Source: a virus (lineage: Duplodnaviria; Heunggongvirae; Uroviricota; Caudoviricetes). From it: DNA of 45,033 nt. Positions 831 through 42,828 of this stretch are shown here, in pieces. The number at the start of each line of letters is the position of its first letter. Position 1 is the stretch's first letter. The notes under the pieces were generated by a model that saw only the letters and a list, made by a program, of their open reading frames with translations, made no database searches and had not been told where the DNA came from. The DNA is taken from the IMG/VR virus record IMGVR_UViG_3300005527_003200; one strand, given 5' to 3'. The translations under genes were made by a program, and so were the position numbers.

Positions 831-836
831 AAATAT

Positions 837-1613: not shown

Positions 1614-1614
1614 G

Positions 1615-1663: not shown

Positions 1664-1664
1664 A

Positions 1665-1948: not shown

Positions 1949-1969
1949 TTTGATTTTCCTTTTTAGTTA

Positions 1970-2506: not shown

Positions 2507-2518
2507 GTTGTTTCCTTA

Positions 2519-2833: not shown

Positions 2834-2836
2834 ATA

Positions 2837-3565: not shown

Positions 3566-3566
3566 A

Positions 3567-5114: not shown

Positions 5115-5115
5115 A

Positions 5116-5862: not shown

Positions 5863-5871
5863 GTGCTTTCC

Positions 5872-6648: not shown

Positions 6649-6953
6649 TTTGCACCTTCAAATATTTTTTTCTGTACTGAGTACCACTCAATCCAAGCAT
6701 CTGCTTTCACAGCACAAGCATAGTAAGTGGTGTAGTTTTGTACCACAGTTCGACCAACGTCACTGAGTCGAGCTTCACCTGGAATCTGTTCCAGTTGTGG
6801 GCACGGCACCATGGCTGATCGTCCGGGTGCATCTGGAAACTTGGCCACAACAGGCACCACAGTGCTGCACCCAGTGATGGCCAACATCAGCATCACAACA
6901 ATTGCAAATATAATCAAACTGGAAACAAGTTGTTGATCCTGTTGATTTTTCAT
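6645..6953 (-). CDS. Putative o-spanin (Rz1-like lipoprotein)
   Basis: Hydrophobic signal with lipobox LAITGC, Pro-rich periplasmic part; ATGA-coupled to the endolysin. Confidence 0.72.
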   Translation of the reverse strand: MKNQQDQQLVSSLIIFAIVVMLMLAITGCSTVVPVVAKFPDAPGRSAMVPCPQLEQIPGEARLSDVGRTVVQNYTTYYACAVKADAWIEWYSVQKKIFEGAK

Positions 6954-6954
6954 G

Positions 6955-8346
6955 TCAGCAGTTCCATTTTCTCAATGCTAGAGCCTTGCGTGTGGGTTTG
7001 CCGTTGGGTTTTTTCATTGGGCCTTTAACGCCTGACATTCTGGCGCAGAATGATTTGCGTCTTTTTGCTGCCTTAGAGCCTTTCTTTAGTTTTGAAGGCT
7101 TGGTGGTCACGGCCATTTGCAATTTTGATCCAGGATTTTCTCTACGATATGATGCCACACCTTTGGCGTTTAATCCGCCTTTTTTGCTCTTGCCTTCTTT
7201 ACGTCGCCAGGCGGCTGTTTCATACAGCACATTGTCCGGCATGGCTTCAAACTGTTCCCACACTAGATCTTCGCTCACACGATTTTTCACAGCCATTTCT
7301 GCTACCAACTCTTGCATGGCTTCAAACATTTCATCCACTTCGGGATCCACTTCGTCTGACGCTTCCTCTGAATACATATAGTCCCACACAGCAACCAGCA
7401 TTGACTTGGCCACAGCAATCTTTTCTTGACACCATTCAGGCAAGTTATCACCTGATTGAATTAGATCGTCAATACCTTCTACAGCACGTTGTAGCGTTTC
7501 TAAGTTGTTGTCGGCCATGCCTGCTTCGTCGTCATACTCGCCATTGTAGTCTTCCGCTACACCTTGCTCACTAAATCGCTGACGATAACTGTTGGGATTC
7601 ATTGACGATCTAGAACCAACTACAGCATTACCTTCGCCACTCAGCAACAAATCATACATGAGTTTGATTACTTTTAAAGGGCTGTTCATTCTTTCCAGGG
7701 CATTTTTAAACCATTCAACTTTTTCTGGTTTCATTGGCTTGGCACTGGGCTTGCTGATCAATGCCAGTGCCTGTGCTTTCAACGTGGACAAGTCTCTGAT
7801 TTGTTCAAGACGTTTTAGATCCTCAATATCAAAGTTGTAATCAGCTTTGCCTTCCGCCACACCTTGCTGATCTTTGGGCTCGTCAAACAAGGAGTCTATG
7901 GCTTTTTTGCCGCCATACAACACAGCCAACACAATGCCAGCAGGGATGGCATATTTAAAAGCCAAAGCAGACAGGTCAAGCAATGTTTTCTCGTCAATGG
8001 CCGTGCCCACCTTGGCAGCAATATCTTTGGCAATGTCTGCCACAGAAGATCCAATTTCGTAAGCACCAGCACCCATGCCAATTTTTCCAGCATTCTTGGC
8101 TGCAATTTCTGTGCCAGCTCGAGCAGCCTGACCTGCACCGCGAGCTCCTGCTTGTCCTGCTTGGCCAAGAACCTGTGCTATTTTTGGGGCAGCAGCCATG
8201 AACAGTCTTGCACCTGCTGCCAACAACGGCGCAAATTCATCAAGCTGTTGTTCTTTGACCATGCCGGCCTTTTTCTTTTTAGCAATAGCAATGGCTGCCT
8301 GTTGAGCAGGCGACGCTGCTTCTAGTATTACGTCATTTAGTTTCAT
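6955..8346 (-). CDS. Modular putative internal head protein (C-terminal DUF6321-like basic domain)
   Basis: Likely start MKLNDVILE at 8346; modules separated by VKE/LDE/QGVAE/LYE motifs; C-terminal AAWRRKEGK...RRKSFCARM...ALRKWNC. Confidence 0.65.
   Translation of the reverse strand: MKLNDVILEAASPAQQAAIAIAKKKKAGMVKEQQLDEFAPLLAAGARLFMAAAPKIAQVLGQAGQAGARGAGQAARAGTEIAAKNAGKIGMGAGAYEIGSSVADIAKDIAAKVGTAIDEKTLLDLSALAFKYAIPAGIVLAVLYGGKKAIDSLFDEPKDQQGVAEGKADYNFDIEDLKRLEQIRDLSTLKAQALALISKPSAKPMKPEKVEWFKNALERMNSPLKVIKLMYDLLLSGEGNAVVGSRSSMNPNSYRQRFSEQGVAEDYNGEYDDEAGMADNNLETLQRAVEGIDDLIQSGDNLPEWCQEKIAVAKSMLVAVWDYMYSEEASDEVDPEVDEMFEAMQELVAEMAVKNRVSEDLVWEQFEAMPDNVLYETAAWRRKEGKSKKGGLNAKGVASYRRENPGSKLQMAVTTKPSKLKKGSKAAKRRKSFCARMSGVKGPMKKPNGKPTRKALALRKWNC
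7551..7868. repeat. 18-nt direct repeat pair 300 nt apart encoding QGVAE linkers
   Basis: cttccgctacaccttgct (7551-7568) and cttccgccacaccttgct (7851-7868), 17/18 identical. Confidence 0.85.
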
Positions 8347-8803
8347 TTTTTGGTGCCTCCGCTGCACGATTTATAGTGGTAATGAATTCTCGAGGAATTT
8401 CACACTGTCCACCAGGTGCAAATTTTACATCGTACTTGACTATTTCTCTGTCAATATACTGTATGATGTCTTGACCTCTACGAGTGATGTATTCAGTTTT
8501 CTTCACAACTCGTTCCACAATCTTTACATTTTCCCGTGCGCTTTCAGCTTCAGCAATCTTTAGTTTTTGTTCCACTTCAGCCACACGCTCGCGCCATTCT
8601 GCTTCCACTGCGTATCCGCCGCGAAAGTAAACTCCTAGCACCAAAAGTGCAATGCCCAGGACTTTAAAGGGCAACTGATATTGCCACACTAGAGGAATAC
8701 GATGCGCAAAAAATCCTGCTACAGTAAGCACAAGGCCCGCTAATAACAGGATGTTACAAAACCATAAGATCAAGGCATCAGGAAGAAAATGTAAAATCCA
8801 CAT
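8333..8803 (-). CDS. Putative i-spanin (Rz-like)
   Basis: Two N-terminal TM segments, coiled coil EAEWRERVAEVEQKLKIAE, C-terminal Cys; lies upstream of the o-spanin and endolysin. Confidence 0.62.
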   Translation of the reverse strand: MWILHFLPDALILWFCNILLLAGLVLTVAGFFAHRIPLVWQYQLPFKVLGIALLVLGVYFRGGYAVEAEWRERVAEVEQKLKIAEAESARENVKIVERVVKKTEYITRRGQDIIQYIDREIVKYDVKFAPGGQCEIPREFITTINRAAEAPKNETK

Positions 8804-8808
8804 GCCAT

Positions 8809-8814
8809 TATTTA
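8809..8814 (-). promoter_or_regulatory. T4-late-like TAAATA box overlapping a stop codon, 5 nt before the ATG
   Basis: TAAATA-ATGGC-ATG; the TAA is the stop of the DUF2061 gene. Confidence 0.6.
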
Positions 8815-9015
8815 GTTGCGCCCCCAGGATACCCGAGCCCAGGCCCGTTCATGCAACCAATACAGCACAGTATTCACACCCATTTGCACAAATGCAATGA
8901 CCGAGCTAATTCCAAAACTACCAGTAATTAAATACGCAATGGTAAATGTGCTGGCGCTGCCAGTAATGCGCCAGGTCAGAGTTTTTACTAGACTACGACC
9001 ATTGCTGTCGGTCAC
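8812..9015 (-). CDS. DUF2061-like small membrane protein
   Basis: RSLVKTLTWRITGS...LYWLHERAWARVSWG. Confidence 0.8.
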   Translation of the reverse strand: MTDSNGRSLVKTLTWRITGSASTFTIAYLITGSFGISSVIAFVQMGVNTVLYWLHERAWARVSWGRN

Positions 9016-9806
9016 TTTAATCCTAATTCTTTGCGAATTTTTGTGGCTGAAATATCTGTGATTGCTTCGTCAAATGACTCTTCGCCGGCTGAATAGCCCA
9101 CGCCGCGACCCCAGCCAATATGCACAATGTTGGGCACAACTTGTATTTCATACTGGCCTTGATACAGAGGATCTAAGTCACGTCGAATAAATGATTTCAC
9201 TCGTTCCACTTCAAACGGATTAGAACCCTGCCAGCCCTGTACATCACGCACTTGAATAACAACCTGCCCTGTGCGTTCTAGCAGGCGTTCAAATAACGCA
9301 CGATGGCCGTCATGCCAGGGCTGCCAGCGACCCAGCATTTGCACAGTTTCTCGTTTGAAATCAAACACAGGACGTCGACGATTGTCGATAATGTGCTCTT
9401 TAATGAAGTCCGCCCATTTCTCACAGTTCTGTTCATTTATGCGAAAGTCGTACACTTCGGGTTCCACAAACATGGCATTGGTATCAGCATATCGACCTTC
9501 ACGGATGGTGTCTACCCATACAGTCCAATCTGCTTTGAACACATTGCGCATTTCCACCAAGGGTGCCACAAAGTCTGCTATCATGTAGTCATATGCTGTG
9601 AGCTTGTCTGCTAGTTCACGCATTCTTCGTGCTTGACGAATACGCCCGGCTTCTGAAAAGTCCCAGTCATTGTACTGTTCGCGGATTTCGTCTGCGTTCA
9701 GCCAACCCACTTGCTTGCCAGCTGCTTCTAGCTGTGCTTGCAATTCCCGTGCCAGTGTGGTTTTACCCGAGCCTGGCAGGCCCATGATTAAGATACGTTG
9801 TGGCAT
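9012..9806 (-). CDS. Fusion: adenylylsulfate kinase (CysC)-like domain + HxGH nucleotidyltransferase domain
   Basis: GLPGSGKT P-loop, LNADEIR...WDFSEAGRIRQARRM (CysC-like); LGRWQPWHDGH, NPF and ISATKIR (NadM/cytidylyltransferase superfamily). Confidence 0.8.
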   Translation of the reverse strand: MPQRILIMGLPGSGKTTLARELQAQLEAAGKQVGWLNADEIREQYNDWDFSEAGRIRQARRMRELADKLTAYDYMIADFVAPLVEMRNVFKADWTVWVDTIREGRYADTNAMFVEPEVYDFRINEQNCEKWADFIKEHIIDNRRRPVFDFKRETVQMLGRWQPWHDGHRALFERLLERTGQVVIQVRDVQGWQGSNPFEVERVKSFIRRDLDPLYQGQYEIQVVPNIVHIGWGRGVGYSAGEESFDEAITDISATKIRKELGLK

Positions 9807-10720
9807 AGTGTGTCCTTTGAATTATTTAATGATGAAACTTTGACCTTTAAAATATCTGCAACCCAACCATTTTGCACCATTTCAATGGGGTGGCATTCAC
9901 CGTAGTATTCATTGCTGACCCAGGCCTCGTGTTCTGCGTCATAATCAAACCAAGGGCTAAATCCCAGCACTAGATTGGTTCTGTCTGCGCTATCCACACC
10001 ATGCACTCGATGGGACTGATTGGTGTCCCAGGTGTAGGCCCGGCCCAATTGTAAATTGATATCCTCACCGCGGTACTGCAAATAATGATCAGGCGATTGA
10101 GTTAAAGGTATGTTTATTCTGACATTTTCATACACAGGCTCGTCTTTGTGCAGTAGATATTCAGGATTTGTACTGTCTTGTGCATGAGCACGAATCACAC
10201 TCAGTCGCGATCTTATTAGAGTTCTTGGAAAATGACTCAACAAATCACCAAATTGTTCACGTGCCACTGTGTTGGGCTGATTGAATGCATAGCTGTCATA
10301 GTATGAATTTTTTAAACGACCACGCAAGGCCAACCAAGTGCGCACGTTGCCATAAAAAAATGATTGATTGTTAATAAAACTTGAACCCAGGGTGGAATTG
10401 AATTCTGTCACAGCAGGATCACGTATGTGGGGATTGTGTGTCAAACTCAGTGACTGATATGAACTGCGTGATCGTCCTTGCCTGCTCAACCAGCCGTAGC
10501 TGCCATACAGTGCAAGAGCCTGTTCAGCTGCCTGTTGCAGTGCGCCAACAGGATAATTCAACTCACACTCATGCACTTGATTTGCTGGTTGGGGCAGGCG
10601 TCGAAACAGTCGTTCAATGTTGGTGCGTAATTTTATGTATGAAAACACTGACAGAAAAGGCGGCACATCAGCTGTACGAATCACAATCTTTTTTGTGGAC
10701 ATTTGAAATAGTAAATGCAT
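9788..10720 (-). CDS. Putative 2OG-Fe(II) oxygenase (Asp/Asn beta-hydroxylase-like fold); start uncertain
   Basis: LLHKDE (HxD), RINIPL, YTWDTNQSHRVHG (distal H), DRTNLV (R). Confidence 0.6.
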   Translation of the reverse strand: MHLLFQMSTKKIVIRTADVPPFLSVFSYIKLRTNIERLFRRLPQPANQVHECELNYPVGALQQAAEQALALYGSYGWLSRQGRSRSSYQSLSLTHNPHIRDPAVTEFNSTLGSSFINNQSFFYGNVRTWLALRGRLKNSYYDSYAFNQPNTVAREQFGDLLSHFPRTLIRSRLSVIRAHAQDSTNPEYLLHKDEPVYENVRINIPLTQSPDHYLQYRGEDINLQLGRAYTWDTNQSHRVHGVDSADRTNLVLGFSPWFDYDAEHEAWVSNEYYGECHPIEMVQNGWVADILKVKVSSLNNSKDTLCHNVS

Positions 10721-10818
10721 TTGCTGAACGCTACAATTTGCGATTGGAAACGTTCAAAAAAGAGCCCGCTGAATTGGGGCGTCTTTATTTTGTTTACAGC
10801 AAACCAGCAGCGGCTTGA
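10697..10818 (+). pseudogene. Possible 3' remnant of a displaced phage methyltransferase gene
   Basis: WTFEIVNAFAERYNLRLETFKKEPAELGRLYFVYSK* resembles the C-terminus of a SAM methyltransferase recalled from related phages; no plausible start or RBS. Recall only. Confidence 0.35.
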
Positions 10819-11366
10819 AGTTCGCGCAGATCACGCTTGACTGCGTGAATTTGTTTTTCAGGCAGGCCAGCGGCTGCTCGCCATTCATTTAGATCCTGAT
10901 CTGTGCTTTTTCTATAAGCGTCTGGCGTGAGTGGCACAGTGTCAGCAAACACCTGTTCGTCCCAGGAAAATTTGCCATTGTTGTAGTGTACCATCCAGTC
11001 GTCGGGTTCATACTCTGTGAGCGTGGAAAGATCATCCAGCAGTGTTTGCACATGCTGTGGGGCTGAACTGCGTCTGCGTATTTCCAGATAAACCAAGTAT
11101 CTGTTGGGTTTGATTTCGCCGGGTGAACGGTCAGCGTCCAGCACAAAATCATAGCCTTTTTCAAACCACGCCACAAGATCCTTGGCAGCGGCTTTGTCAC
11201 GCACAAAAAAGCTCAGCACAATGATGTCTTCGTCGTCGCCCATTTTTGAGCTGAATTCATCCACGTGAATAGTGGGCTTCATTATGCCGTCGAGGTCACG
11301 ATACTGTAGACCTTCAAGCAGAGGGTTGTGAGAGTTGTTGTTGTGCATCATTTGCTTGTGAATCAC
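10794..11366 (-). CDS. Conserved phage hypothetical protein
   Basis: 190-aa ORF in frame with the minus-strand gene flow (IHVDEFSSKMGDDEDIIVLSF); start uncertain. Confidence 0.75.
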   Translation of the reverse strand: MIHKQMMHNNNSHNPLLEGLQYRDLDGIMKPTIHVDEFSSKMGDDEDIIVLSFFVRDKAAAKDLVAWFEKGYDFVLDADRSPGEIKPNRYLVYLEIRRRSSAPQHVQTLLDDLSTLTEYEPDDWMVHYNNGKFSWDEQVFADTVPLTPDAYRKSTDQDLNEWRAAAGLPEKQIHAVKRDLRELQAAAGLL

Positions 11367-11910
11367 TTTGATTGGCTTCTTGATCTAGATCCTGCTCGTA
11401 GGCATCATCTAAATCTCCGAGGTCAATGTCCTCGTCTTCCATTTCAATGGAACCTGTACGTATTTCACTCATTAAGGCCTTGGGCATGACTATTTCTACC
11501 AGCCATACATCACGTTCCATGATCTTGGCTTTTTTGGTACCCGGGCGGTAGTCTGATGGGTCTGTAATTTTGATGGGAATCTTGATCTTTTGCTTTTTGT
11601 ACTTTATTTCGCAGTCAAATGGCAACAAGCGTCGACCACCACGTGGGTCGGGCATGAGCTTTTCAGGCCACATGAAAATACAGCCCACTGTGTACTTGCC
11701 AATATCCGGGCCTTGTACCAGTTCGCCAATGGCCCAGTTGCGAAATGCATAGATATCTAATTCGTCCAGCACACGCTCAAAGTCCAACAGCGTGGTAAGA
11801 CTGCCGTCGCTCATGTAGATGTTGCGAATATTGTCGGCTACCTGCCAATAATCTTCGTGATTTTTGAACAGTTCTTTGTCGTTGATGCCGTGTGCGTTCT
11901 TGGTTTGCAT
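11314..11910 (-). CDS. Conserved phage hypothetical protein, acidic C-terminus
   Basis: 198-aa ORF preceded by TAAATA-N5-ATG. Confidence 0.8.
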   Translation of the reverse strand: MQTKNAHGINDKELFKNHEDYWQVADNIRNIYMSDGSLTTLLDFERVLDELDIYAFRNWAIGELVQGPDIGKYTVGCIFMWPEKLMPDPRGGRRLLPFDCEIKYKKQKIKIPIKITDPSDYRPGTKKAKIMERDVWLVEIVMPKALMSEIRTGSIEMEDEDIDLGDLDDAYEQDLDQEANQSDSQANDAQQQLSQPSA

Positions 11911-11915
11911 GTGAT

Positions 11916-11921
11916 TATTTA
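11916..11921 (-). promoter_or_regulatory. T4-late-like TAAATA box
   Basis: TAAATA-ATCAC-ATG. Confidence 0.6.
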
Positions 11922-11952
11922 TGGCAAAAACACTGTGTTGTGGTTTTTGGTT

Positions 11953-12867
11953 TTATGATGCATTGCGGCCTTTGACCGTGGGGTAAATTGTGATGTTTTG
12001 TTTGGTAATAGTAGGGCAAAATTTGCACTGTGCAATAGGGTCATCTAATCGTGCCAGCCAGTCCACAGCAGGACCTGGCCAGTCATTCACTGTCAGCGGT
12101 TGATAGCTGTTTAATAACAGTCGATCTTGGTCGCTGATTGCTAGATTGTGCTGTTGGTCAAATTCAGGCATCAGGGCCACTGGCCCGCATTTGTACAGTT
12201 GGCCACGAATGAAATGATAGCATTTGTACTGAGCAAACCCGCAGGCTTGATGTGCAAAAAAAGGGTCTGAATCATGCAGTGCAAATTGTCCTTGATTGTT
12301 TCTGTACACTGCTGCATCGTGAAAACTGTTGGCCAAATGCATTCTGACCAGCACATTGTTCACATCTCGTGCTGAATAGAAAGCATGATTGTCTGAGTTG
12401 TATTTGTCAACCACATCAATTGCTGTGCCATATTCTTCATTGATTGGCTGTAAAAAACTTTTTATATTGCTTCGTATTTGATCAAAATGGTCCAAGTTGT
12501 GCAGGCTTATTTCAATATTGCCGCAGGCCAGGCCGTTGTCGGCTTTTATATTGGCAAGAGCATTGTACAAATCAGGATTGGATTTTAACTGCAATCCATT
12601 TGAAAGAATCTGTATGTTGCATTTAAAAATATCATTTAATCCCACAACCCATTCTGACAGTGTGGGGTTTAGGGTGGGTTCGCCACCCAGGATCACAATG
12701 TTTTTTAATTCAATATATTCGCCCCAGCGTCGATAGGTGTCAGCATAGTCACTCCAGCGTTGCCAACCAGTGAATCGATGATTGTTAAAACGATTGCAAT
12801 TTTCACATGTCAAATTGCATACGTTGGTGATGTAGAATTCTACTTTGTTTTCAAATGTGTATTTCAA
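11953..12867 (-). CDS. Radical SAM protein
   Basis: CNLTCENC (CxxxCxxC), LGGEPTL, SNG; C-terminal Cys cluster (CGFAQYKC...YKCGP...CKFC); TTG start. Confidence 0.88.
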   Translation of the reverse strand: MKYTFENKVEFYITNVCNLTCENCNRFNNHRFTGWQRWSDYADTYRRWGEYIELKNIVILGGEPTLNPTLSEWVVGLNDIFKCNIQILSNGLQLKSNPDLYNALANIKADNGLACGNIEISLHNLDHFDQIRSNIKSFLQPINEEYGTAIDVVDKYNSDNHAFYSARDVNNVLVRMHLANSFHDAAVYRNNQGQFALHDSDPFFAHQACGFAQYKCYHFIRGQLYKCGPVALMPEFDQQHNLAISDQDRLLLNSYQPLTVNDWPGPAVDWLARLDDPIAQCKFCPTITKQNITIYPTVKGRNAS

Positions 12868-14316: not shown

Positions 14317-14959
14317 AGAGTCTGAGTATTTCGCCTTGTGTGGAAAAAATATTTCCGTTTAGTTCTGTGGTTGATTTTGTGTTAATCAAGTGTACTATAT
14401 CTCGGGCTTTGTTGTCAAGTTGATTTGATAACCCACCGTCAGGATGCACACCAAAAAAACAAGCAGGAAAGTTCATTGCAAACGACTTCATGATACAAGC
14501 ATTGGTAAACTTGTTGCCAATGTAATCTGCGTAACCAACATGATTGAGTTTTGGTTGCACAATTAACTCACTCAACATCCAACCAATTTTGGTACTATGA
14601 TCAATCCGATTGCCCAACGCATGCACAAGATAAAATGGAAATTGACAAGATACAAAATAACTCTGTTGCCAATCTCTAGGATTTTGCACAGTAGATTTTT
14701 TAAATTTTGATTCGCTCAACGCTGATGCATTGTGATTGAAAAATACCAAGTCAATATGCTGTAAATTTGGAATGCATTGTCGAATGTTTGCCAATTGCAT
14801 TTTTTTCCATTCAACTGGTATCACAGTCACGTTGGGGGTGTGGACCCAAGCGTTAGCATTGCTGGTCACAAGATACACATGATAGTCGTGTGCCACAAGT
14901 TGTTCAGTCAATTTGGCGCCAAATTTTGATCCGCCGCCCATGATCAAACAAGTTTTCAT
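14297..14959 (-). CDS. Short-chain dehydrogenase/reductase-like protein
   Basis: Start MKTCLIMGGGSKFG at 14959 (ATGA overlap); IDLVFFN; YIGNK (YxxxK); GVHP. Confidence 0.65.
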   Translation of the reverse strand: MKTCLIMGGGSKFGAKLTEQLVAHDYHVYLVTSNANAWVHTPNVTVIPVEWKKMQLANIRQCIPNLQHIDLVFFNHNASALSESKFKKSTVQNPRDWQQSYFVSCQFPFYLVHALGNRIDHSTKIGWMLSELIVQPKLNHVGYADYIGNKFTNACIMKSFAMNFPACFFGVHPDGGLSNQLDNKARDIVHLINTKSTTELNGNIFSTQGEILRLYEKIQP

Positions 14960-16113
14960 ACTACCAGCTCCGGAAACACCCGGCGCCAATTGGTGCCCCG
15001 CAGCTGGTCCAAATGATCAAAATATTTGACATATCCCGAAGGATCAGACTCTACTGTTTCTAATTCTTGTGTACATCTTGCAATATTGAACCAGGAGTTT
15101 GATTTGTTTTCAATCAGTCCAGATGTCAACAATTGATTTATCTGTGTGCAAGCAAGTTGCTTGATTGCAGTGGGTGCATGCCTGGCACGTAGATATTGAT
15201 GTTTGTACAGTTGATTGATTGTGATGTCTGTAATTCCGTGCTCTTGCACAAAATATTTGATAGTATCAGTCAAGTCAGATACACTGCCCACAAACCATAC
15301 TAGATTTAATCGTATGTCATGACCAAGTGTTTTGATAGTTTTGAGATTGTTAAGAAACTGATTCCAGTTGCCGCCTTGTCTTACATAATTGAATTTATCT
15401 TCTATACAGTCTGCACTCACAGTCCAAAGAACATTTTTAAATCGTTTGAGTTCGACAAACACTGAATTAGAGTCAGTGGCTTGACTGATGTTTGAATTGA
15501 TTCTTATTGGAAGTTCTGTATTGACAAGTTTTTTGAGTAATTTAACATTGTGTTTGATCAACAACGGTTCGCCACCAGAAAGATATATCTCTTTCATGAC
15601 ATACTGATTTTGTTCAATCCTAGCAATAATGTCATCAATATTCTTGTTGTCACTTCGATTGGTTGTTATGCCTTGTTCTTGTGCAATCAAACTGCTTTGA
15701 GCCGGATTGCAATACACACATTTAAAATTGCAGGTATTGTCCCAATGTAAATCAACGCCATTAAGTTCAAATGCAGTGATATCTTCATAGTTGATATCAA
15801 AGTTTTTAAACATGGGATTATAATGATTGCGTAAATCAAAGTGCTCAGTACCAGTGGTCAGGCGATGACAAGCTGTGCAGTTTTGATTGAAAGTATCTTG
15901 TAATAAATCTTGTTTGATTGCCTGTATATCTGCTGACTGTAAGATTTGATCCAGCGGTTGATCATTTATATTGCCAAACGGAATTCCTTTGCTGCAAGTG
16001 CGAACAGCACCATCAGAAAAAATTTGAAAATGGTTCCATGGTACTGCACAAAAATGTTTTGACTCTTTGAATAAGAAAAACTTTTTCTTATGGCTCAACA
16101 ATTTCATATCCAT
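14956..16113 (-). CDS. Radical SAM protein with N-terminal SPASM/twitch-like Cys domain
   Basis: FCAVPWNH...VRTC...CTAC; CNFKCVYC; LSGGEPL; INSN. Confidence 0.88.
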   Translation of the reverse strand: MDMKLLSHKKKFFLFKESKHFCAVPWNHFQIFSDGAVRTCSKGIPFGNINDQPLDQILQSADIQAIKQDLLQDTFNQNCTACHRLTTGTEHFDLRNHYNPMFKNFDINYEDITAFELNGVDLHWDNTCNFKCVYCNPAQSSLIAQEQGITTNRSDNKNIDDIIARIEQNQYVMKEIYLSGGEPLLIKHNVKLLKKLVNTELPIRINSNISQATDSNSVFVELKRFKNVLWTVSADCIEDKFNYVRQGGNWNQFLNNLKTIKTLGHDIRLNLVWFVGSVSDLTDTIKYFVQEHGITDITINQLYKHQYLRARHAPTAIKQLACTQINQLLTSGLIENKSNSWFNIARCTQELETVESDPSGYVKYFDHLDQLRGTNWRRVFPELVV

Positions 16114-35739: not shown

Positions 35740-36407
35740 TATTGTTCCCTCTTTGTTGGCATTAATCGATAACCTAGACCTTTGACAAATTCCCATGACA
35801 TTGAGTCTGCTTCAAAGTCTTCTCGCATGGCTGTGCCACCATGCAGTTTGCAAAAACTATATTCTGTTGCGTAAAAATTCATTCCAGTAAAATAACTTAT
35901 GTTTGCTAATCTTTCAAGCCCCAGGCCATGATTGTGAGTACACATCTGCCAACTGTGCCCGGCCACTATCCAATGTCTACAAGGCTCCGGTAACAAGGAA
36001 GTGTGATGTAAAAAATCAACATCATTGTTAAAAAAAATACTTTGTTCGTTGTCTAACAAATATCGTTGCACAAGATGTGATGTTTGCTCATGTTGTCCTG
36101 AACTTTTTAAGATATTTAATGCAACCCAAAGATCTGCGTCTGTTGGTGTTTCTGTTGGATTGTTTCGTAGATCATTATTGTAAGTCCAACAGTACCGCTG
36201 AAAAGTGTTACGCAGACTCCGATCGTTCCAGTCAAATCGATTGTGTGTTAGGCTGTTGACTATACATTTGAAATTGTATTCTCGCAACTGATGTATGAGA
36301 TTTGCATAAAAATAGTCTTTAAAAAATTGCCCGCCTGCAGGCTCCCAACAATCCAACAAGATCAATCCATCTACAGTTGGTATTGTGTTGGTTTTTGAAA
36401 CTATCAT
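35739..36407 (-). CDS. Hypothetical protein
   Basis: 222-aa ORF, ATGA-coupled to infA. Confidence 0.72.
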   Translation of the reverse strand: MIVSKTNTIPTVDGLILLDCWEPAGGQFFKDYFYANLIHQLREYNFKCIVNSLTHNRFDWNDRSLRNTFQRYCWTYNNDLRNNPTETPTDADLWVALNILKSSGQHEQTSHLVQRYLLDNEQSIFFNNDVDFLHHTSLLPEPCRHWIVAGHSWQMCTHNHGLGLERLANISYFTGMNFYATEYSFCKLHGGTAMREDFEADSMSWEFVKGLGYRLMPTKREQ

Positions 36408-36625
36408 TTGCGTCTTGTGATACGACCTCGTGATAGATCGTATGGGCTGAATACAATTTCTACTCGATCGCCAAGAAGAACTTTGATGTTGTTGGTCCGC
36501 ATACGCCCTGACAGGTATCCAATCACCACATTATCTATGCTATCTAATCTGATGCGAAACATAGCGGCAGGCAAAATCTCCTCTACTGTTCCTTCCATAC
36601 TGATTGTTTCTTCTTGTTTGGCCAT
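36404..36625 (-). CDS. infA: Translation initiation factor IF-1
   Basis: ISMEGTVEEILPAAMFRIRL...SGRMRTNNIKVLLGDRVEIVFSPYDLSRGRITRR. Confidence 0.95.
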   Translation of the reverse strand: MAKQEETISMEGTVEEILPAAMFRIRLDSIDNVVIGYLSGRMRTNNIKVLLGDRVEIVFSPYDLSRGRITRRK

Positions 36626-37024: not shown

Positions 37025-37062
37025 TTGGAGTTCTCCTCTATAAGTTAATTGACGTTTTTTCT

Positions 37063-38223
37063 TCATGCTAAAAATTTTGTCAATGCCAGCACCACATTGG
37101 TACCACCAAATGCAAAGCTGTTGTTCAAACACACATCTTGTTCATGCTCAACAACCTCAGTTGGTAGGTACACACCTTCAGGAATTGCAGGATCAGGATC
37201 AGTTAGATTCCAATTGGGAATAATTTGATTTGTTTTTAGCACAGCCAAACAAGCCAGCAGTTCCATGGCTCCAGAGTTGCCCAACAAGTGCCCGTGCAGT
37301 GCCTTGGTTGAACTGATGGGAACGCCACTGCCAAATACTTTTTGTATACTACTTAATTCAACCAAGTCTCCAACAGGTGTGCCTGTGCCATGTGCGTTGA
37401 TATAGGTCACACGACTTGGATCAATACCATTCAGTGCAGATTGCATGGCAGAGATCTGACCTTGTTCACTGGGCTTGGTTAGAGTTTCGCTGCCACAACT
37501 GATACCATATCCCACAATTTCTGCATGTATCACAGCATTTCGAACCAGCGCATGATCCAAACTTTCTAGAACATAAACAACACTGCCTTCGCCCAAGATG
37601 ATGCCATCTCGTGTGGCACTGAATGGTGCAGACTTTGTGCCCATGGCCCGCATGGCCCGCCATTGGTCCACTAAAATGGGACTGAGGCAAAATTCGGCGC
37701 CGCCGGCTGCCATAACGCTGACCTCGCCATGTTTGATGGCTTTGTATGCTTCTCCAATAGACACACTGCTGGAAGCACATGCCGCTGTGTGTGTGAACAC
37801 AGGACCTGTGATGTTGTCTTTTGACGCAATAAAACTGGCTGCGCCACTGCTCATTGATGATACCAAACTGTTTGGACGCACTCGACCTTTATCCTGGAAT
37901 TCAAGAATGGTGTTGTTCACTTCGTAGGCAGCACCTGCGCCTGTACCAATGTAAACACCATCCACACTGGTTTTTGCATCTGCTTTTGCTTGTTGGTATG
38001 CCAGCATGGTGGCGCGAGCAAACAAACTTGTGGCCGCAGTATCATAACGATCAAATTGATCATTGATGTTGCTGTGTCCTAATCCAACCTTGGCAGTGTT
38101 GGCCTGGAGAGTTTCACTAAAAATGATGCCTGATGTTCCTGCATACATGGCAGCAACAACTTGATCATAACTATTGCCCAATGGAGTAATGCAACCCACT
38201 CCTGTAATAACTACTCTATTCAT
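37063..38223 (-). CDS. fabF: Beta-ketoacyl-ACP synthase (FabF/NodE-like type II KS)
   Basis: RVVITGVG, TAACASS (Cys), YINAHGTGT (His), STKALHGHLLG (Lys/His), NSFAFGGTN. Confidence 0.93.
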   Translation of the reverse strand: MNRVVITGVGCITPLGNSYDQVVAAMYAGTSGIIFSETLQANTAKVGLGHSNINDQFDRYDTAATSLFARATMLAYQQAKADAKTSVDGVYIGTGAGAAYEVNNTILEFQDKGRVRPNSLVSSMSSGAASFIASKDNITGPVFTHTAACASSSVSIGEAYKAIKHGEVSVMAAGGAEFCLSPILVDQWRAMRAMGTKSAPFSATRDGIILGEGSVVYVLESLDHALVRNAVIHAEIVGYGISCGSETLTKPSEQGQISAMQSALNGIDPSRVTYINAHGTGTPVGDLVELSSIQKVFGSGVPISSTKALHGHLLGNSGAMELLACLAVLKTNQIIPNWNLTDPDPAIPEGVYLPTEVVEHEQDVCLNNSFAFGGTNVVLALTKFLA

Positions 38224-38969
38224 GTTTTGATCAGTCGAATAAATTGTGCCGCATAGTCAACTTCCCACCACTGCTCACGTTGATTCCACCGTTGTGGATT
38301 GGCATGATGATTGTTGTGCCATTCTCCAATGACTAGGGCTAGATAGCTATTTGAACTGGTATCCTTTGTGGCATGATTCTGATAGGTGGTCAAACCGTGA
38401 GTGTGACACACGGTGTTCACAAAACCCATGGCCAACAATGCTCCTGCATTAGCAATACTATAGCACAAAAACAATACGGGGTCAATGGCCAATAGCACCA
38501 ATGCAAACGTCAAAACAATCAATGCGTAATAATTGTGAGTGAACTTCATCCAAGGATCTCTTAGATCTCTAATGCCATCCCACATGCTGAGATTGGACAA
38601 GTTCCAATTGAACAGTATCACATTGAGAATTCCAATGTCTGGAGCATGTGGATCTTGTGCAGTGTCTGTGTGTACATGATGGGCTCGGTGGATGATGGAA
38701 TAACCAACTGGTGACCCAAAACAGGCCAAACAAGAACTCACACACAAAAATGCATGCCAAAACGGAGTGACTGTGTAACTGCGGTGTGAGAAGTATCTAT
38801 GCAATCCTGCATGGTGTGAGATGAACAACAAAAAACTGTAAAAGAACACAAGGTATATTGCGTACCACCAATGCCATTGATATACCAATACTGGTATGCC
38901 CAGCATCGCAACAATCAATTGAACTGAGAGAACCTGTTTGGTTCTGTCAGGATCACCTTGCCAAATCAT
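38220..38969 (-). CDS. Membrane fatty-acid desaturase (delta9/DesC-OLE1-like)
   Basis: Three His boxes HRYFSH, HRAHH, HNNHH, with TM segments. Confidence 0.92.
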   Translation of the reverse strand: MIWQGDPDRTKQVLSVQLIVAMLGIPVLVYQWHWWYAIYLVFFYSFLLFISHHAGLHRYFSHRSYTVTPFWHAFLCVSSCLACFGSPVGYSIIHRAHHVHTDTAQDPHAPDIGILNVILFNWNLSNLSMWDGIRDLRDPWMKFTHNYYALIVLTFALVLLAIDPVLFLCYSIANAGALLAMGFVNTVCHTHGLTTYQNHATKDTSSNSYLALVIGEWHNNHHANPQRWNQREQWWEVDYAAQFIRLIKT

Positions 38970-39244
38970 TTTTTAACACGATTGACCGGATCGTTCACAG
39001 CTTCGGTCAAACTGTCAATGATTTCTGCCAAGTTAGCTGGCTGACTCATGTCAGCAGAGTTTACTTTGATGCCAAGTTCATCTTCAACATCAAATATCAT
39101 TTCAATCACAGACAGTGAATCAATCTTGGGATTGATATTTTGCAAGTCTGCAAGAGGTGCATCCTCTGCAAAGTTGTCAATGTCTAGATCGTACTGTTTT
39201 TTGCAAATCCTCAAAATAACTGTTTTGACTTCGTCGCGTGTCAT
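38966..39244 (-). CDS. acpP: Acyl carrier protein
   Basis: Acidic 92 aa, IDSLSVIEMIFDVEDELGI (DSL phosphopantetheine Ser). Confidence 0.9.
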   Translation of the reverse strand: MTRDEVKTVILRICKKQYDLDIDNFAEDAPLADLQNINPKIDSLSVIEMIFDVEDELGIKVNSADMSQPANLAEIIDSLTEAVNDPVNRVKK

Positions 39245-39263
39245 GTTTTACCTTTCTATAATT

Positions 39264-39530
39264 TCATGCAAATTTTAACAAAAATACAAGATACTTTTTC
39301 TCATCCACAATCTCAACTTCTCGACTGTATCCATTCATGTGAGTGTCCGATGGCAACAACCGGATGCCGTATGTGTCCCGGAACCATGCTATTGTATCCA
39401 TATCAGTTTTACAATGCGTTCTGCCTTCTTCTGACTGTCGACACTTTTGCATTCGTACCCAAAAGCCAGCATCACCTAGAATGGTGTCTAGTCTTTTTTC
39501 CGGCGTTGAATACAAGTCGTTGTTAGCCAC
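39264..39530 (-). CDS. Phage hypothetical protein
   Basis: 88-aa ORF in the operon flow, ends KKYLVFLLKFA. Confidence 0.7.
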   Translation of the reverse strand: MANNDLYSTPEKRLDTILGDAGFWVRMQKCRQSEEGRTHCKTDMDTIAWFRDTYGIRLLPSDTHMNGYSREVEIVDEKKYLVFLLKFA

Positions 39531-40511: not shown

Positions 40512-40826
40512 TTACTTAAAAAGTATTAAGGCCATCAAAACCGCTTGCACAATGAATCCTGCACCCACTGTGATGATGTTGAGCATGTCTTTGAGCACCA
40601 CTGCCCGTAAGAACAGCAGGACCAGGCCGGCCCACATAAACAGCACAATGTCCAAACTGGGTGTGCGATCACTAAGTCCGGTCATCAGCGCCAAAAGTGT
40701 GGGAATGGTTGCGGCATGAATCACAATGGCCGCTAGCCAACCTAGTGTTTCTGCGGAGATTTTTGGCAAGTGATCTTTCAGCCAAAGTTGCAGGATTTCG
40801 GCTGTGTGTTGCAAGTCAAATTTCAT
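40512..40826 (-). CDS. Three-TM membrane protein
   Basis: Three hydrophobic segments. Confidence 0.75.
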   Translation of the reverse strand: MKFDLQHTAEILQLWLKDHLPKISAETLGWLAAIVIHAATIPTLLALMTGLSDRTPSLDIVLFMWAGLVLLFLRAVVLKDMLNIITVGAGFIVQAVLMALILFK

Positions 40827-41431
40827 CGTTTATCTCCGTAAAAAATGTGTCGGCCAATCTTTTCAATACGCGGTTTGCCCCAGTTGGGATTCACATAGTC
40901 TGCATGATAATATAGGGCGTTTTTCAAGCCAGGCAATCGGAAGTTTTCCAACAGCACCTTCTTGGCCACTTCTTCGCTTTCGCGCCACAGTGGAGTATAA
41001 ACTGCTCGTGTTTTGTGATTGGTTTCGCAGTACCAGGAGAACTGGCATACTACCTTTTCATAAAACACATTTTTTTGATAAACCACGCCACACACGGAAT
41101 CAGGAAAACGTCCAGATTCCACACGGTTCATTGTGACTTGAGCCACTGCCACTTTGCCTTCAAAAGGCTCTGAGGCTGCTTCCCAGTAGATGTTACGGGT
41201 AAGGCAGTCCAGTTGTCGAGTGCGCTCGGCAGCAGACACATAGCCTGCTGGTAGATTTCCTGTTTGTTCGCGCAAGGCATCCAGTCGGCTTTGACACACT
41301 GCAATCACAGTGGCAACGACCAACCAGAAGCCTAGGGCTTTCAGGATGCGTGAGCTCCATGTGGCCCACCTGTTGAGAGAGATAGTTTTTTCTTTCATGG
41401 TAGTTTTACTTACTGGAATGGTTGCTATCAC
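40823..41431 (-). CDS. Cell-wall hydrolase, SleB/Hydrolase_2 family, N-terminally membrane-anchored
   Basis: CLTRNIYWEA, GKVAVAQVTMNRV, VCGVVYQ, QFSW, ALYYHADYVNPNW, IGRHIFY. Confidence 0.9.
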   Translation of the reverse strand: MIATIPVSKTTMKEKTISLNRWATWSSRILKALGFWLVVATVIAVCQSRLDALREQTGNLPAGYVSAAERTRQLDCLTRNIYWEAASEPFEGKVAVAQVTMNRVESGRFPDSVCGVVYQKNVFYEKVVCQFSWYCETNHKTRAVYTPLWRESEEVAKKVLLENFRLPGLKNALYYHADYVNPNWGKPRIEKIGRHIFYGDKR

Positions 41432-41485: not shown

Positions 41486-42298
41486 TCAAAACTTGCAGAC
41501 CGGTATTGGCAGCATCTTGTGCATGTTTCTAGCACGAATGTCTTGGTACCGCTTGAGTTTTTTTCTATCATCTGCTGACAATTTGGCGCTGCCAGGCATG
41601 TCGGAGTCCACAGCCTTGCATCGTTGCAAAAAGTCCAAGGCCATCATGCGCTCAAGATCTGGGTAGCTCATGCCCAGTTGACCTTCGTCTGTGCGCCCAT
41701 CATCCCACAAGCCGTCGGTGGGTGCGGCATCAATGATTTCTTGTGGCAGCCCAAACTCTCTACCCATATCCCATACTTCTGTTTTCATGCAGTCGCCGAT
41801 GGGGCTGATATCCACACCACCATCACCATACTTGGTAAAGAAGCCCACACCAAAGTCTTCCACTCGGTTGCCGGTGCCTACTACAATACCACCATGGCAT
41901 TGTGCAATTTGGTACAAGGTCATCATACGCAATCTAGCACGTGAGTTGGCAAAAGCCAGTTCAACTTGTGATGCATTTTCTGCATCACAAAATGGCACAG
42001 TTTTCTTTTCAAACGCAGAGAACACAGACGTCAAATCCATGCTCATGTGTGTGACGTTTTTGTAGCGTTCCATCAACCAGGTAGCCTGCATTGAACTGCG
42101 ATTGTCCAGCTTCTTGTTTTGGCGGATGGGCATTTGCACCACAATGGTTGTGAGTCCTGTTTCGGCGCATAATGCACTCACAACAGATGAGTCAATCCCA
42201 CCTGAGATCCCTACAACTAGTGTAGAGATCTTGTTTTTTGTTGCGTATTGTCGGATCCATTTTACAATGTGCTTGATACGTTGCTTTGGTGTTACCAT
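41486..42298 (-). CDS. nadE: NH3-dependent NAD+ synthetase
   Basis: VVGISGGIDS, ARLRM, GTGN, FFTKYGDGGVDISPIGD, APTDGLW; no glutaminase domain; likely start MVTPKQ at 42298. Confidence 0.95.
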   Translation of the reverse strand: MVTPKQRIKHIVKWIRQYATKNKISTLVVGISGGIDSSVVSALCAETGLTTIVVQMPIRQNKKLDNRSSMQATWLMERYKNVTHMSMDLTSVFSAFEKKTVPFCDAENASQVELAFANSRARLRMMTLYQIAQCHGGIVVGTGNRVEDFGVGFFTKYGDGGVDISPIGDCMKTEVWDMGREFGLPQEIIDAAPTDGLWDDGRTDEGQLGMSYPDLERMMALDFLQRCKAVDSDMPGSAKLSADDRKKLKRYQDIRARNMHKMLPIPVCKF

Positions 42299-42828
42299 TT
42301 GACCTCCGGCTTGGGCATTGCTTTTAGTTTGTTCCATACTTCTGCTTTTTCCTTGCATTTCTTTTCCAGCTTGCGATAGCGTTCTCCCAGTCGGCGCAGA
42401 TCATCCCACTCTCGTTCCAGTTCAGGATTTGGTGTGAGAATGTTCAGGCGTTCTTCAACCTTTTCCATCCAGTCTTTAAGACTCTTGCCATTGATGTCAA
42501 GATCAGCTTTGTCCCCTCTAAGACTCATCTTGCCACCTTGTTCAATCGTAGATCCTACTGCACTGTAATTTGCACCAATTGTAAAACTGCCTGTGGTTGT
42601 GTTGTTTGTGGTCCAAACAGTGTTGGAGCCAGTGGCACCGTTGAGTCCACCAATGGTGTATCCGCCAGTGATGTTGGTGGTATCACTTATGATTACAGTT
42701 GGCATGGTATTTGCATCAAATGCACTTACCAATGGGGGAATAGCACCGTAAGAAGGGTCGGTTGTTAGGTCGTTATATTCGTATTCTTTGAGGTTGAGGT
42801 TTACCCAGTCGTTTTTATAAGTTGCCAT
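42292..42828 (-). CDS. Phage hypothetical protein (T/G-rich middle, C-terminal coiled coil)
   Basis: GDKADLDINGKSL...ERLNIL.PNPELE..W. Confidence 0.72.
   Translation of the reverse strand: MATYKNDWVNLNLKEYEYNDLTTDPSYGAIPPLVSAFDANTMPTVIISDTTNITGGYTIGGLNGATGSNTVWTTNNTTTGSFTIGANYSAVGSTIEQGGKMSLRGDKADLDINGKSLKDWMEKVEERLNILTPNPELEREWDDLRRLGERYRKLEKKCKEKAEVWNKLKAMPKPEVKW

Follow-up and report, generated by a model that had tools for sequence, protein, structure and literature searches.

Dedicated acyl carrier proteins (ACPs) encoded together with a membrane Delta9-type di-iron desaturase are known from bacteria, namely in the JamA/JamB/JamC and TtuA/TtuB/TtuC systems (cyanobacteria, Teredinibacter), where a fatty acyl-AMP ligase loads the chain, the desaturase uses it in ACP-bound form and the product is an alkyne. 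The rhizobial pair NodF/NodE combines a private carrier with a KAS II enzyme, borrows the housekeeping FAS II and yields a special unsaturated chain. Its double bonds arise in the elongation cycle, and the pair has no desaturase. [quoted passage not shown] To date, the lipid genes of phages have been viewed as lone helper desaturases. The cyanophage vFADs are short Delta9-type enzymes with three His boxes, which occur as lone genes with no ACP or ketosynthase (KS) partner, cluster with host DesC and are read as acyl-lipid enzymes (PMC5776448). The only prior mention of a KS with a desaturase found in our literature search is one sentence of gene names, in which 'fabF, stearoyl-CoA desaturase' are listed for freshwater (Fonsibacter) pelagimyophages (Zaragoza-Solas et al., 2020; PMC7029224), with no ACP, operon, tandem arrays, phylogeny or pathway. 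These fabF and SCD-like genes of T4-type freshwater phages probably belong to the module family described below, and the statement in a preliminary description of our locus that no described phage has such a trio was nearly right, save for this listing.

The locus analyzed here, an ACP-desaturase-KS cassette, resembles the Jam/Ttu systems in its dedicated ACP encoded with a membrane Delta9-type desaturase; it differs in being viral and in having a KS where those systems have the ligase; the use of an ACP-bound chain by its desaturase is putative. With NodF/NodE it shares the logic of a private carrier, a KAS II-type enzyme and borrowed FAS II, but it adds a desaturase. Unlike the polyyne core, the window has an ACP and one desaturase, and neither ligase nor thioesterase. 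Phage relatives with 3-9 desaturases come closer, being putatively thiotemplated and having several membrane desaturases and, in one case, a rubrerythrin gene beside the module, where the core has iron and electron-transfer helpers; in those with 3-4 desaturases, however, the KS replaces the ligase and no thioesterase is recognised, and all phage desaturases fall in a single Delta9-type clade. The desaturase is phage-borne, short and of Delta9 type with three His boxes, as are the vFADs, but it lies inside an ACP-KS cassette and shows only 26-34% identity to any cellular protein found. The trio, a mobile unit of carrier, condensing enzyme and desaturase, is a member of a large family of lipid-building phage modules that is essentially undescribed; the same logic recurs in many uncultivated freshwater phages, with up to nine desaturases.

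Genomic setting of the cassette

The window, i.e. the whole stretch of 45,033 bp that was analyzed, corresponds to bases 65237-110269 of an IMG/VR record of 364,404 bp with direct terminal repeats, which is a complete, terminally repeated phage genome from fresh water. The three genes are encoded on the minus strand in the order ACP (38966-39244; ORF of 92 aa), membrane desaturase (38220-38969; 249 aa) and KAS II-type KS (37063-38223; 386 aa). Direct reading confirmed these coordinates, together with the ATGA overlaps reported to join ACP to desaturase (38966-69) and desaturase to KS (38220-23). At a third ATGA (37063-66) the KS stop overlaps the likely start, an ATG at 37066, of a WYL_2 gene (PF10902; 36638-37066, minus strand; 46.7 bits in Pfam). 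On the other side, 19 nt upstream of the ACP gene and with an AGAAAGG ribosome-binding site in the gap, lies a gene for a protein of 88 aa (39264-39530, minus strand; sequence read directly), whose function is unassigned and for which Pfam and PHROG searches gave no match. Both flanking genes are outside the cassette. Overlaps of 4 nt are a habit of this genome (a crude gene call has them at 72 of 345 same-strand junctions, 21%), and for this reason they weigh little by themselves, the weight coming from the comparative data. Promoter and terminator scans returned chance-level signals only, and base composition is even.

No phosphopantetheinyl transferase (PPTase), FabD, FabA/Z, PlsC-type acyltransferase or convincing reductase was found anywhere in the 364-kb genome, so that the absence first noticed beside the trio extends to the whole genome and host enzymes must be borrowed, as had been proposed. 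An off-loading enzyme is likewise absent from this phage. The sole AMP-binding gene encodes a short enzyme of 361 aa, 212 kb from the cassette; no AMP-binding gene of the JamA loader type adjoins the cassette, where the KS occupies the partner position. A search for Fer2 ferredoxins gave only sub-threshold matches in broken frames, and a pattern search of this genome for BFD-like small ferredoxins gave only implausible ORFs. The ACP of the cassette is the only one in the genome, which encodes six desaturase paralogs.

The three proteins and their relatives

The ACP matches PF00550 (PP-binding) with 26.4 bits (cut-off 20.8), and its putative phosphopantetheine serine, S43, lies in K-I-D-S-L, with the expected D-S-L/M. 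Residues K40, D42, S43 and E54 are invariant among 14 phage homologues (K40-x-D42-S43 motif). Against the NCBIfam ACP models it scores ~24 bits, with a cut-off of ~70, and its family comprises ~100 protein clusters, from metagenomes only, beyond which similarity drops sharply to generic ACPs. The KS matches PF00109 (113.6 bits) and PF02801 (102.8 bits) above the curated cut-offs and aligns over its full length with FabF of T. thermophilus (1j3n), with all catalytic residues in register. C149, H278, K307 and H312 (Cys-His-His triad plus Lys) are invariant among 16 phage homologues, as is the gating Phe372 in the loop F372-G373-G374-x-N376, which aligns to that of FabF. The best KS model is the NCBIfam fabF equivalog TIGR03150, at 287.8 bits against a cut-off of 493.75, and the protein remains under the cut-off of all NCBIfam KS equivalogs. 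It is ~20-25 residues shorter than FabF, via loop deletions, has 38-41% identity to the nearest cellular proteins, and belongs to a phage-only family of ~90-100 protein clusters well apart from cellular FabF; in the KS tree this phage clade is supported at 100/100 and sits on a long stem (1.05 substitutions per site). Among deposited phage proteins, the KS search returned only FabF/FabB-like genes of ≤35% identity, mostly from unannotated or contaminated records, and PHROGs gave no match for either ACP or KS.

The phage pair thus resembles housekeeping FabF/AcpP in fold, in the Cys-His-His-Lys set, in the Phe gate and in the acidic ACP helix II around the serine, but the KS is set apart by its separate clade, its long stem and its score well under the fabF cut-off. 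Sequence comparison supports the placement of KS and ACP in dedicated lineages, distinct from housekeeping FabF/AcpP. To this extent the earlier likening of the two to dedicated pairs stood; an affinity to NodE/NodF in particular did not. NodF (1fh1) matches the phage ACP with E = 0.29, below dozens of ordinary ACPs, and the KS best matches FabF and FabB, with only one automatic 'NodE' label; NodE/NodF kinship is therefore not supported.

The desaturase matches PF00487 (FA_desaturase; 36.7 bits) above the curated cut-off. Its His boxes (H57-x4-H62, H94-x2-H97-H98 and H218-x2-H221-H222) and an extra ligand, H189, are invariant among 14 sequences, and the His-box ligands align to those of SCD1. 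All the catalytic signatures first described as intact (ACP S43, the desaturase His boxes and the KS Cys-His-His) are therefore conserved across relatives. The AF2 model (pLDDT 91) superimposes on human SCD1 (4zyo) with TM 0.79 (E 1.7e-8) and on the model of Synechocystis DesC with TM 0.81, and its structural matches include TtuB and JamB (TM 0.79-0.80). From sequence and model, the protein is predicted to be a short Delta9/SCD-type membrane di-iron fatty-acid desaturase of a module-specific phage clade. Pairwise identity amounts to 25% with TtuB, 21% with JamB, 26-27% with DesC/ADS and 23-25% with SCD; by this measure JamB/TtuB are no nearer than the acyl-lipid or acyl-CoA desaturases. Given equal distances (21-27%) from acyl-lipid, acyl-CoA and acyl-ACP enzymes, the substrate class is unreadable from sequence, and a complex prediction of desaturase with ACP (score 0.28, mark 0.32) speaks neither for nor against binding. 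Among deposited phage proteins the only match was one of 28% in Pelagibacter phage Mosig, and in PHROGs the desaturase matches one unnamed family. Desaturases on viral contigs were found by a profile search, the single-sequence query having found none. Viral desaturase loci number at least 581.

Conservation, gain and loss across phages

Conservation of the trio as a phage-borne unit had been set in advance as a refutation test of the proposal, and the loci of the KS clade keep the linkage. Wherever a locus of the main phage KS clade is complete, an ACP gene adjoins the module, in which the desaturases number 0, 1, 3 or 4. A KS with 1-9 desaturases beside it also occurs in at least four more KS lineages from viruses, all of them very divergent (loci L103, L104, L189/L192, L211 and L219/L226). 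In the KS tree the three basal lineages have the order ACP-desaturase-KS, and a clade with ACP-KS only is nested, as sister to the clade with 3-4 desaturases; this topology makes ACP-desaturase-KS the apparent ancestral order. The tandem desaturase copies of loci L021 and L037 are pairwise orthologous. The L021 module runs ACP, four desaturases, KS and PF10118, that of L192 has a left-handed beta-helix gene followed by a KS and five desaturases, and L211 has nine desaturases. Desaturases whose genes lie between those for ACP and KS group in a single clade (SH-aLRT 99), apart from the five other desaturases of this genome and from cellular Delta9 enzymes. In contrast, inspection of 6 kb around the 80 nearest cellular desaturase loci turned up a KS, ACP or second desaturase at only four of them. 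ACP-KS pairs without any desaturase do occur in phages, and of 80 viral desaturase loci 41 single and 24 multi-copy ones have no KS or ACP within 6 kb; it follows that each part can function alone. The estimated dN/dS values (~0.09 for ACP and desaturase, 0.04-0.11 for KS) indicate purifying selection on each of the three genes.

The boundaries of the cassette (37061-39272) were delimited with contigs of related phages, which join ~37061-37067 directly to ~39263-39364. The 37067->39272 joint was found in DNA run X13 and in RNA-library run X17, and the 37061->39263, 37067->39292 and 37067->39364 joints in run X13. Since these related phages are without exactly these three genes, the trio behaves as a single cassette. 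In locus L003 the cassette is shifted upstream by one gene relative to the window, with another gene separating WYL_2 from the KS and a homologue of the 88-aa protein downstream of the KS. The same gene order is present in many viral contigs with T4-type neighbours. Sixteen DNA runs, belonging to 11 studies and all labelled as freshwater, lake-water or 'fungus' metagenomes, contain 95-100% of the words sampled from the 3-kb cassette stretch. Contigs from RNA libraries of three studies match the cassette with 90-97% similarity; such contigs cannot show transcription, DNA carry-over being possible. A DNA search of deposited phages gave no match, and protein searches of deposited phages found no cultured phage carrying the module.

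A candidate carrier-bound pathway and competing readings

The reading that we favour, and to which we give an even chance of being right, is that the trio is a portable accessory cassette for one carrier-bound (thiotemplated) pathway to a phage-specified unsaturated acyl chain, with host enzymes borrowed. In this pathway a host PPTase would convert the phage ACP to the holo form at Ser43 and host FabD would load malonate. The phage KS would then condense an acyl chain of the host pool with malonyl-phage-ACP, giving a chain longer by two carbons on the private carrier. As this condensation puts the chain on the phage ACP, the KS would act as the loader, the role of the fatty acyl-AMP ligase in the JamABC and polyyne pathways. 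Host FabG, FabZ and FabI would complete the reduction, and the Delta9-type di-iron desaturase would add a double bond, drawing on O2 and on electrons from a host (or phage rubredoxin-type) donor, most likely on the chain still bound to the phage ACP. Finally, host acyltransferases may transfer the unsaturated acyl group from ACP, so that the envelope lipids of the infected cell are remodelled. What we infer comprises all substrates, the binding of the desaturase's substrate to ACP, the KS as loader and the place where the product ends up. The further products and roles put forward in the preliminary description (an alkyne or polyene, lipid A, protein acylation, a signal) are conjecture.

Several observations argue for one pathway: the strict adjacency of ACP and KS, the similar sizes of their metagenome-only families, the module-specific desaturase clade, the apparently ancestral ACP-desaturase-KS order, the repeated association of KS with desaturases, the joint gain and loss of the three genes, dN/dS values of ~0.04-0.11, and the absence of partner enzymes from the genome. 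Precedent is given by JamB and TtuB, which have the same Delta9-type fold family and work on ACP-bound chains (PMC9828172). Against it stand the equidistance of the desaturase from three substrate classes, the separate occurrence of the parts, the tight packing that is the norm of this genome, the chance-level promoter and terminator scans and the lack of an off-loading enzyme. If the parts do cooperate, phages would build acyl products of their own, beyond tuning host lipids, which would constitute a new class of viral metabolism with bearing on membrane biology in infection, on phage-phage exclusion and possibly on virus-made bioactive lipids. The family also offers enzymology a resource of very small (~250 aa), diverse membrane desaturases and compact ketosynthases.

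A less probable explanation, though one to be taken seriously, is that the three are separate helper genes with a shared aim, i.e. membrane fluidity or the supply of unsaturated fatty acids in cold fresh water. The desaturase would then be an ordinary acyl-lipid or acyl-CoA Delta9 enzyme acting on host lipids, like the cyanophage vFADs, the KS and extra ACP would boost or de-regulate host type II elongation (FabF-type 16:1 -> 18:1), and the genes would travel together because they are co-selected and not because they pass an intermediate. Lone phage Delta9 desaturases active on C16 lipids are established (PMC5776448, PMC7678222), and the proximity of the window enzyme to DesC/ADS, which is as high as to any other group, the retention of every FabF catalytic and gating residue in the KS, the many phages with desaturases alone or ACP-KS pairs alone, and the freshwater, lake-water or 'fungus' labels of the source runs are all in line with this explanation. 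However, a helper FabF has no evident need of a private, diverged and always adjacent ACP, and the module desaturases form a clade distinct from the stand-alone desaturases of the same genome. Fluidity alone hardly accounts for old, subfunctionalised arrays in which 3-9 desaturases accompany a KS, and neither KS nor desaturase is host-like when compared with the nearest cellular proteins.

It is unlikely, in turn, that the unusual acyl-ACP serves as donor for a left-handed beta-helix (LpxA/LpxD/PglD-like) acyltransferase, with a nucleotide sugar, lipid A or a glycoconjugate as acceptor and an altered cell surface (e.g. excluding superinfecting phages) or a decorated phage component as outcome. 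Such a role is suggested by loci L189 and L192, in which a gene for a hexapeptide-repeat acyltransferase lies directly upstream of a KS and four or five desaturases that group within the module clade, and by the second desaturase cluster of this genome, which includes a hexapeptide transferase, an Asp/Arg-hydroxylase-family protein (PF05118) and a TauD dioxygenase. The transferase has similarity to NeuD/PglB and LpxD/LpxA, but it scores far under the LpxA/LpxD cut-offs, is encoded 245 kb from the cassette and has no tie to the single ACP; moreover, no acyltransferase adjoins the trio here or in its closest relatives.

We consider it quite improbable that the cassette is a minimal, one-desaturase version of a specialised-metabolite pathway as in jam/ttu/cay/pgn, in which the carrier-bound chain becomes a reactive polyene, alkyne or polyyne released as toxin or signal. 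Relatives with 3, 4, 5 and up to 9 tandem desaturases plus KS point in this direction, as does a predicted metal hydrolase (PF10118) that follows the KS in L021 and L037, a possible position for a release enzyme; this genome has no PF10118 homologue, and a literature search on the family gave nothing useful. Next to the L021 module is a rubrerythrin gene, of which this genome encodes a homologue, along with a rubredoxin-like stretch; polyyne formation is boosted by ferritin and rubredoxin (PMC9828172). Locus L104 joins an AMP-binding enzyme, a Trp-halogenase-type enzyme, a desaturase and a KS. The cassette itself, however, has a single desaturase of no specific JamB/TtuB similarity and no adjoining thioesterase or ligase, whereas known polyyne cores require three desaturases, a ligase and a thioesterase (PMC9828172). 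The broader extension of the carrier-bound reading, in which uncultivated T4-type and giant phages use a KS-loaded private ACP with 1-9 desaturases to make polyunsaturated, conjugated or acetylenic lipids and the trio is the minimal, ancestral form, is doubtful, with perhaps some prospect of being right; if true, it would amount to a virus-made specialised lipid (a toxin, a signal or a radically remodelled membrane) without described counterpart.

Finally, an artefact (chimeric assembly, mis-joined host DNA or decaying genes) is of negligible probability: the record is a metagenome assembly, yet no evidence of such an origin was found, and the many DNA runs and studies with the stretch, the shared order in viral contigs with T4-type neighbours, the even composition, the intact frames and the purifying selection all speak against it. 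Host insertion or chimerism was rejected and the viral context upheld, as contigs of an independent metagenome run span both internal gene junctions with zero differences.

The three genes and their genomic setting

The cassette consists of three minus-strand genes. Their reading frames, exactly at the positions proposed in the preliminary description, are 38966-39244 for the ACP (92 aa), 38220-38969 for the desaturase (249 aa) and 37063-38223 for the ketosynthase (KS; 386 aa), and each product gives a Pfam match above the curated cut-off. The catalytic signatures it reported as intact are all present and invariant in relatives, namely K40-x-D42-S43 of the ACP, H57/H62, H94/H97/H98, H189 and H218/H221/H222 of the desaturase, and C149, H278, K307, H312 and the F372-G-G-x-N gate of the KS, which aligns residue for residue with T. 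thermophilus FabF. The ATGA overlaps claimed for the ACP/desaturase and desaturase/KS junctions are read directly in the sequence, and at a third ATGA the end of the KS gene meets the probable start codon of the adjoining gene, which encodes a WYL_2 protein. The overlaps alone are weak evidence, since 72 of the 345 same-strand junctions (21%) show four-base overlaps when genes are called crudely across the entire genome; the genes flanking the trio on both sides are packed equally tightly.

Within the IMG/VR virus record, which spans 364,404 bp and carries direct terminal repeats, the window occupies bases 65237-110269. The neighbourhood of the trio includes a clamp-loader-like ATPase and, all on the minus strand, a homologue of the translation initiation factor IF-1 (36404-36625), a SleB-type cell-wall hydrolase (40823-41431), an NAD synthetase (41486-42358) and a subtilase (3567-5114); a radical SAM/SPASM enzyme is encoded at 14956-16113 (minus). 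Sixteen DNA runs, drawn from 11 studies with freshwater, lake-water or 'fungus' metagenome labels, contain the 3-kb trio stretch almost unchanged, and in a run not flagged as a possible source, contigs without differences span the KS/desaturase (37121-38447) and desaturase/ACP (38652-39119) junctions. Base composition is even over the region, and dN/dS is ~0.09-0.11 for each gene against L025, the closest relative, with synonymous sites saturated. This multi-run presence, the bridged junctions, the even composition and the low dN/dS rule out a chimera or decaying DNA, and the terminal-repeat record places the trio in a viral context; the host insertion previously named as an alternative is rejected.

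Phage lineages and gene-order history

The best curated model for the KS is fabF (288 bits against a cut-off of 494), and curated ACP models reach ~24 bits against cut-offs of ~70. A search of 5.8 billion proteins retrieved ~90 KS clusters of 380-395 aa with 42-96% identity, all metagenomic, beyond which identity steps to 38-41% for ordinary FabF (~410 aa); the ACP profile returned ~100 clusters, all of them metagenomic, before a steep fall to generic ACPs. In the maximum-likelihood tree, the phage KS form one clade (100/100 support, stem of 1.05 substitutions per site) beside cellular FabF, and the protein search found no member of it in any deposited phage genome. By these scores, clusters and tree, the KS and ACP are phage lineages rather than housekeeping genes, which agrees with their earlier description as dedicated and distinct from FabF/AcpP. 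The NodF/NodE-like affinity also suggested was not borne out, the NodF match to the ACP being insignificant (E = 0.29) and no specific kinship being found. A clade of their own (SH-aLRT 99, in a tree built without named reference desaturases) unites the desaturases situated between ACP and KS genes, apart from both the cellular Delta9 enzymes and the five additional desaturases encoded here. The nearest cellular desaturases are 26-34% identical, and of the 80 nearest cellular loci only 4 show, within 6 kb, a KS, an ACP or a further desaturase.

The co-occurrence survey envisaged in the preliminary description finds the trio conserved together: the order ACP-desaturase-KS recurs in other viral contigs and assemblies (L025-L028, L035, L023, L200-L206). 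Further contigs carry ACP-KS (L029-L031, L034, L038), ACP-KS-desaturase (L032, L033), or ACP and KS enclosing three (L037) or four (L021) desaturases, these orders being simple longest-ORF calls in neighbourhoods of ~6-7 kb on contigs many of which are fragments. T4-type replication genes (gp32, gp59, late-transcription coactivator, RNase H, PhoH) adjoin the module in many phage-KS contigs. All three basal lineages of the KS tree have ACP-desaturase-KS, and the clade with ACP-KS alone lies nested beside its sister, the three-/four-desaturase clade; the simplest history is an ancestral trio, with a single later loss of the desaturase and a single tandem expansion. Orthologous pairs link the tandem copies of L021 with those of L037, so these arrays are old and subfunctionalised.

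Contigs of related phages, from a lake-type DNA run and an RNA-library run, join ~37061-37067 straight to ~39263-39364, omitting exactly the KS, desaturase and ACP genes, with a left breakpoint common to four contigs of one run and one contig of another. They are moderate evidence that the trio behaves as a unit, because the matching sides are short (25-67 bases). The relative L003 lends independent support: there, the cassette lies between homologues of the 132-aa and 88-aa genes, unlike in the window, where it lies between the 88-aa gene and WYL_2. The trio-skipping contigs and this different site show that the cassette is an accessory unit gained, lost and moved whole.

A proposed carrier-bound pathway and its alternatives

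The genetics of the trio is established by its conservation and joint inheritance, the specificity of its clades, the selection on it and its intact active sites; every chemical step is inferred, and we give about an even chance to the trio encoding one carrier-bound pathway. The KS would move a host acyl chain to the private ACP and extend it, taking the loading role held by the acyl-AMP ligase in jam and polyyne systems; the desaturase would act next on this chain, most likely still carrier-bound, and host acyltransferases would use up the unsaturated product. The genome-wide profile searches detected a single ACP, no phosphopantetheinyl transferase, malonyl transacylase, FabA/FabZ or PlsC-type acyltransferase, and only marginal short-chain dehydrogenase matches distant from the cassette, in line with the absence of PPTase, reductase and acyltransferase next to the trio noted earlier. 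Since these enzymes are absent from the genome, the pathway would have to use those of the host for carrier activation, malonyl loading, reduction and off-loading. The predicted desaturase structure (pLDDT 91) matches human SCD1 (TM 0.79) and also DesC models. TtuB (decanoyl-ACP acetylenase) and JamB (hexenoyl-ACP acetylenase) are among the same structural matches, so enzymes of this fold can use ACP-bound chains; with identities of 21-27% across all three substrate classes, the sequence assigns none.

The main rival, held as less likely, is that the proteins are separate membrane-fluidity helpers, like cyanophage vFADs: each part is also found without the other, but neither the private ACP nor the clade of module-specific desaturases nor the old arrays of several desaturases would be explained. 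Sugar or lipid A acylation as the destination is improbable and a specialised polyene or polyyne product slightly more so, both being suggested mainly by relatives, not by the window phage.

The proposed pathway resembles JamABC and the polyyne cores as a carrier-bound desaturation system, and NodFE in its dedicated ACP/KAS II pair. The trio differs from all of them in being virus-borne and in having its own protein clades, and from JamABC and the polyyne cores in the KS at the loader position. Phage desaturases that occur singly are already on record as helper genes (PMC5776448, PMC7678222, PMC11480375), and 'fabF, stearoyl-CoA desaturase' are named in one sentence as peculiar to freshwater pelagimyophages (PMC7029224). 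The literature search found no paper describing a phage ACP-desaturase-KS operon, a private ACP or phage tandem desaturase arrays; the earlier statement that no phage with this trio is described thus holds for the operon and yields for the two genes already named.

Other lipid genes and wider phage modules

Five further short (234-260 aa) Delta9-type desaturases are scattered in the genome (G000), and six in one phage genome is unusual. They lie in the genome stretches L016 (4549-5313, minus), L017 (8862-9593, minus; 10333-11115, plus), L018 (6815-7519, plus) and L019 (7000-7755, minus). The L018 enzyme looks host-derived, given its 377 bits on the NCBIfam DesA-family model (cut-off 400); it adjoins a 683-aa CHASE2 sensor-adenylate/guanylate cyclase fusion (L018:7521-9572; G000 135521-137572, minus), with a FecR-domain protein near. 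The L017 cluster (8134-11988; G000 348134-351988) comprises a PF05118 Asp/Arg-hydroxylase-family protein, a desaturase, a hexapeptide-repeat transferase (NeuD/PglB, LpxD/LpxA-like), a divergently oriented desaturase and a TauD dioxygenase, and may modify a sugar-linked or lipid A-type acyl chain; an akin TauD-desaturase...Asp_Arg_Hydrox set recurs in another locus, L190. In L016 (5770-6564), and likewise in an unrelated viral contig carrying rIIB (L191:5213-6064), a Band_7/SPFH gene for a membrane scaffold is found close to a lone desaturase, possibly a recurring membrane-remodelling pair. The only AMP-binding enzyme of the genome (FadD-like, 361 aa) lies 212 kb from the cassette, with no evident link to it, between a TctC-type solute-binding protein homologue and a radical SAM protein (L020:6810-11902; G000 314810-319902). 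A rubrerythrin (145 aa), followed by a rubredoxin-like stretch in another frame (L185; G000 355102-355666, minus), has a close homologue (E 6e-69) in the rubrerythrin of L021 (12-503), which lies ~1.2 kb upstream of the four-desaturase module there, and could be an electron/iron helper for di-iron desaturases or a mere oxidative-stress gene.

Desaturase-profile matches were found in at least 581 viral stretches. Among the best 80, for which gene orders were tabulated, 41 loci have one desaturase, 16 two, three three, four four and one five, although these may hide divergent carriers because the ACP profile is narrow; nine have ACP-desaturase-KS, and single loci have two or three desaturases followed by ACP, ACP-three desaturases-KS, KS-four desaturases (L219), KS-five desaturases (L226) and a KS among nine desaturases in 12.7 kb (L211). 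In the last (1-12729), the very divergent KS and the desaturases are accompanied by a PP-loop-like ATPase and a RimK-type ATP-grasp enzyme. Two short contigs, in which no ACP was detected, combine a hexapeptide-repeat acyltransferase, a short 354-aa Cys-His-His KS and four or five tandem desaturases (L189:1465-6266, L192:43-5488) beside a T4-type clamp-loader gene, and one desaturase of each (P0152, P0145) falls inside the module clade. In L104 (2118-7735), a 107-kb viral contig, an AMP-binding enzyme, a Trp-halogenase-type flavin enzyme, a desaturase, a 199-aa protein and a divergent KS stand in a row, a set which we take to resemble jamaicamide JamA-D. In the KS tree, these KS lineages beyond the main phage clade are extremely divergent and fall outside the FabF group, so the pairing of phage KS and membrane desaturase is either very old or repeatedly arisen; a functional link is favoured in both cases.

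A PF10118 predicted metal-dependent hydrolase, absent from the genome of the window, directly follows the KS in the three-/four-desaturase modules only (L037:8152-8784, L021:6179-6799) and is a candidate for a release or tailoring step. L021 also carries a 59-aa ORF (1275-1454), immediately upstream of its ACP gene, whose C-x-C...C-x-x-C pattern is reminiscent of BFD-type [2Fe-2S] ferredoxins.
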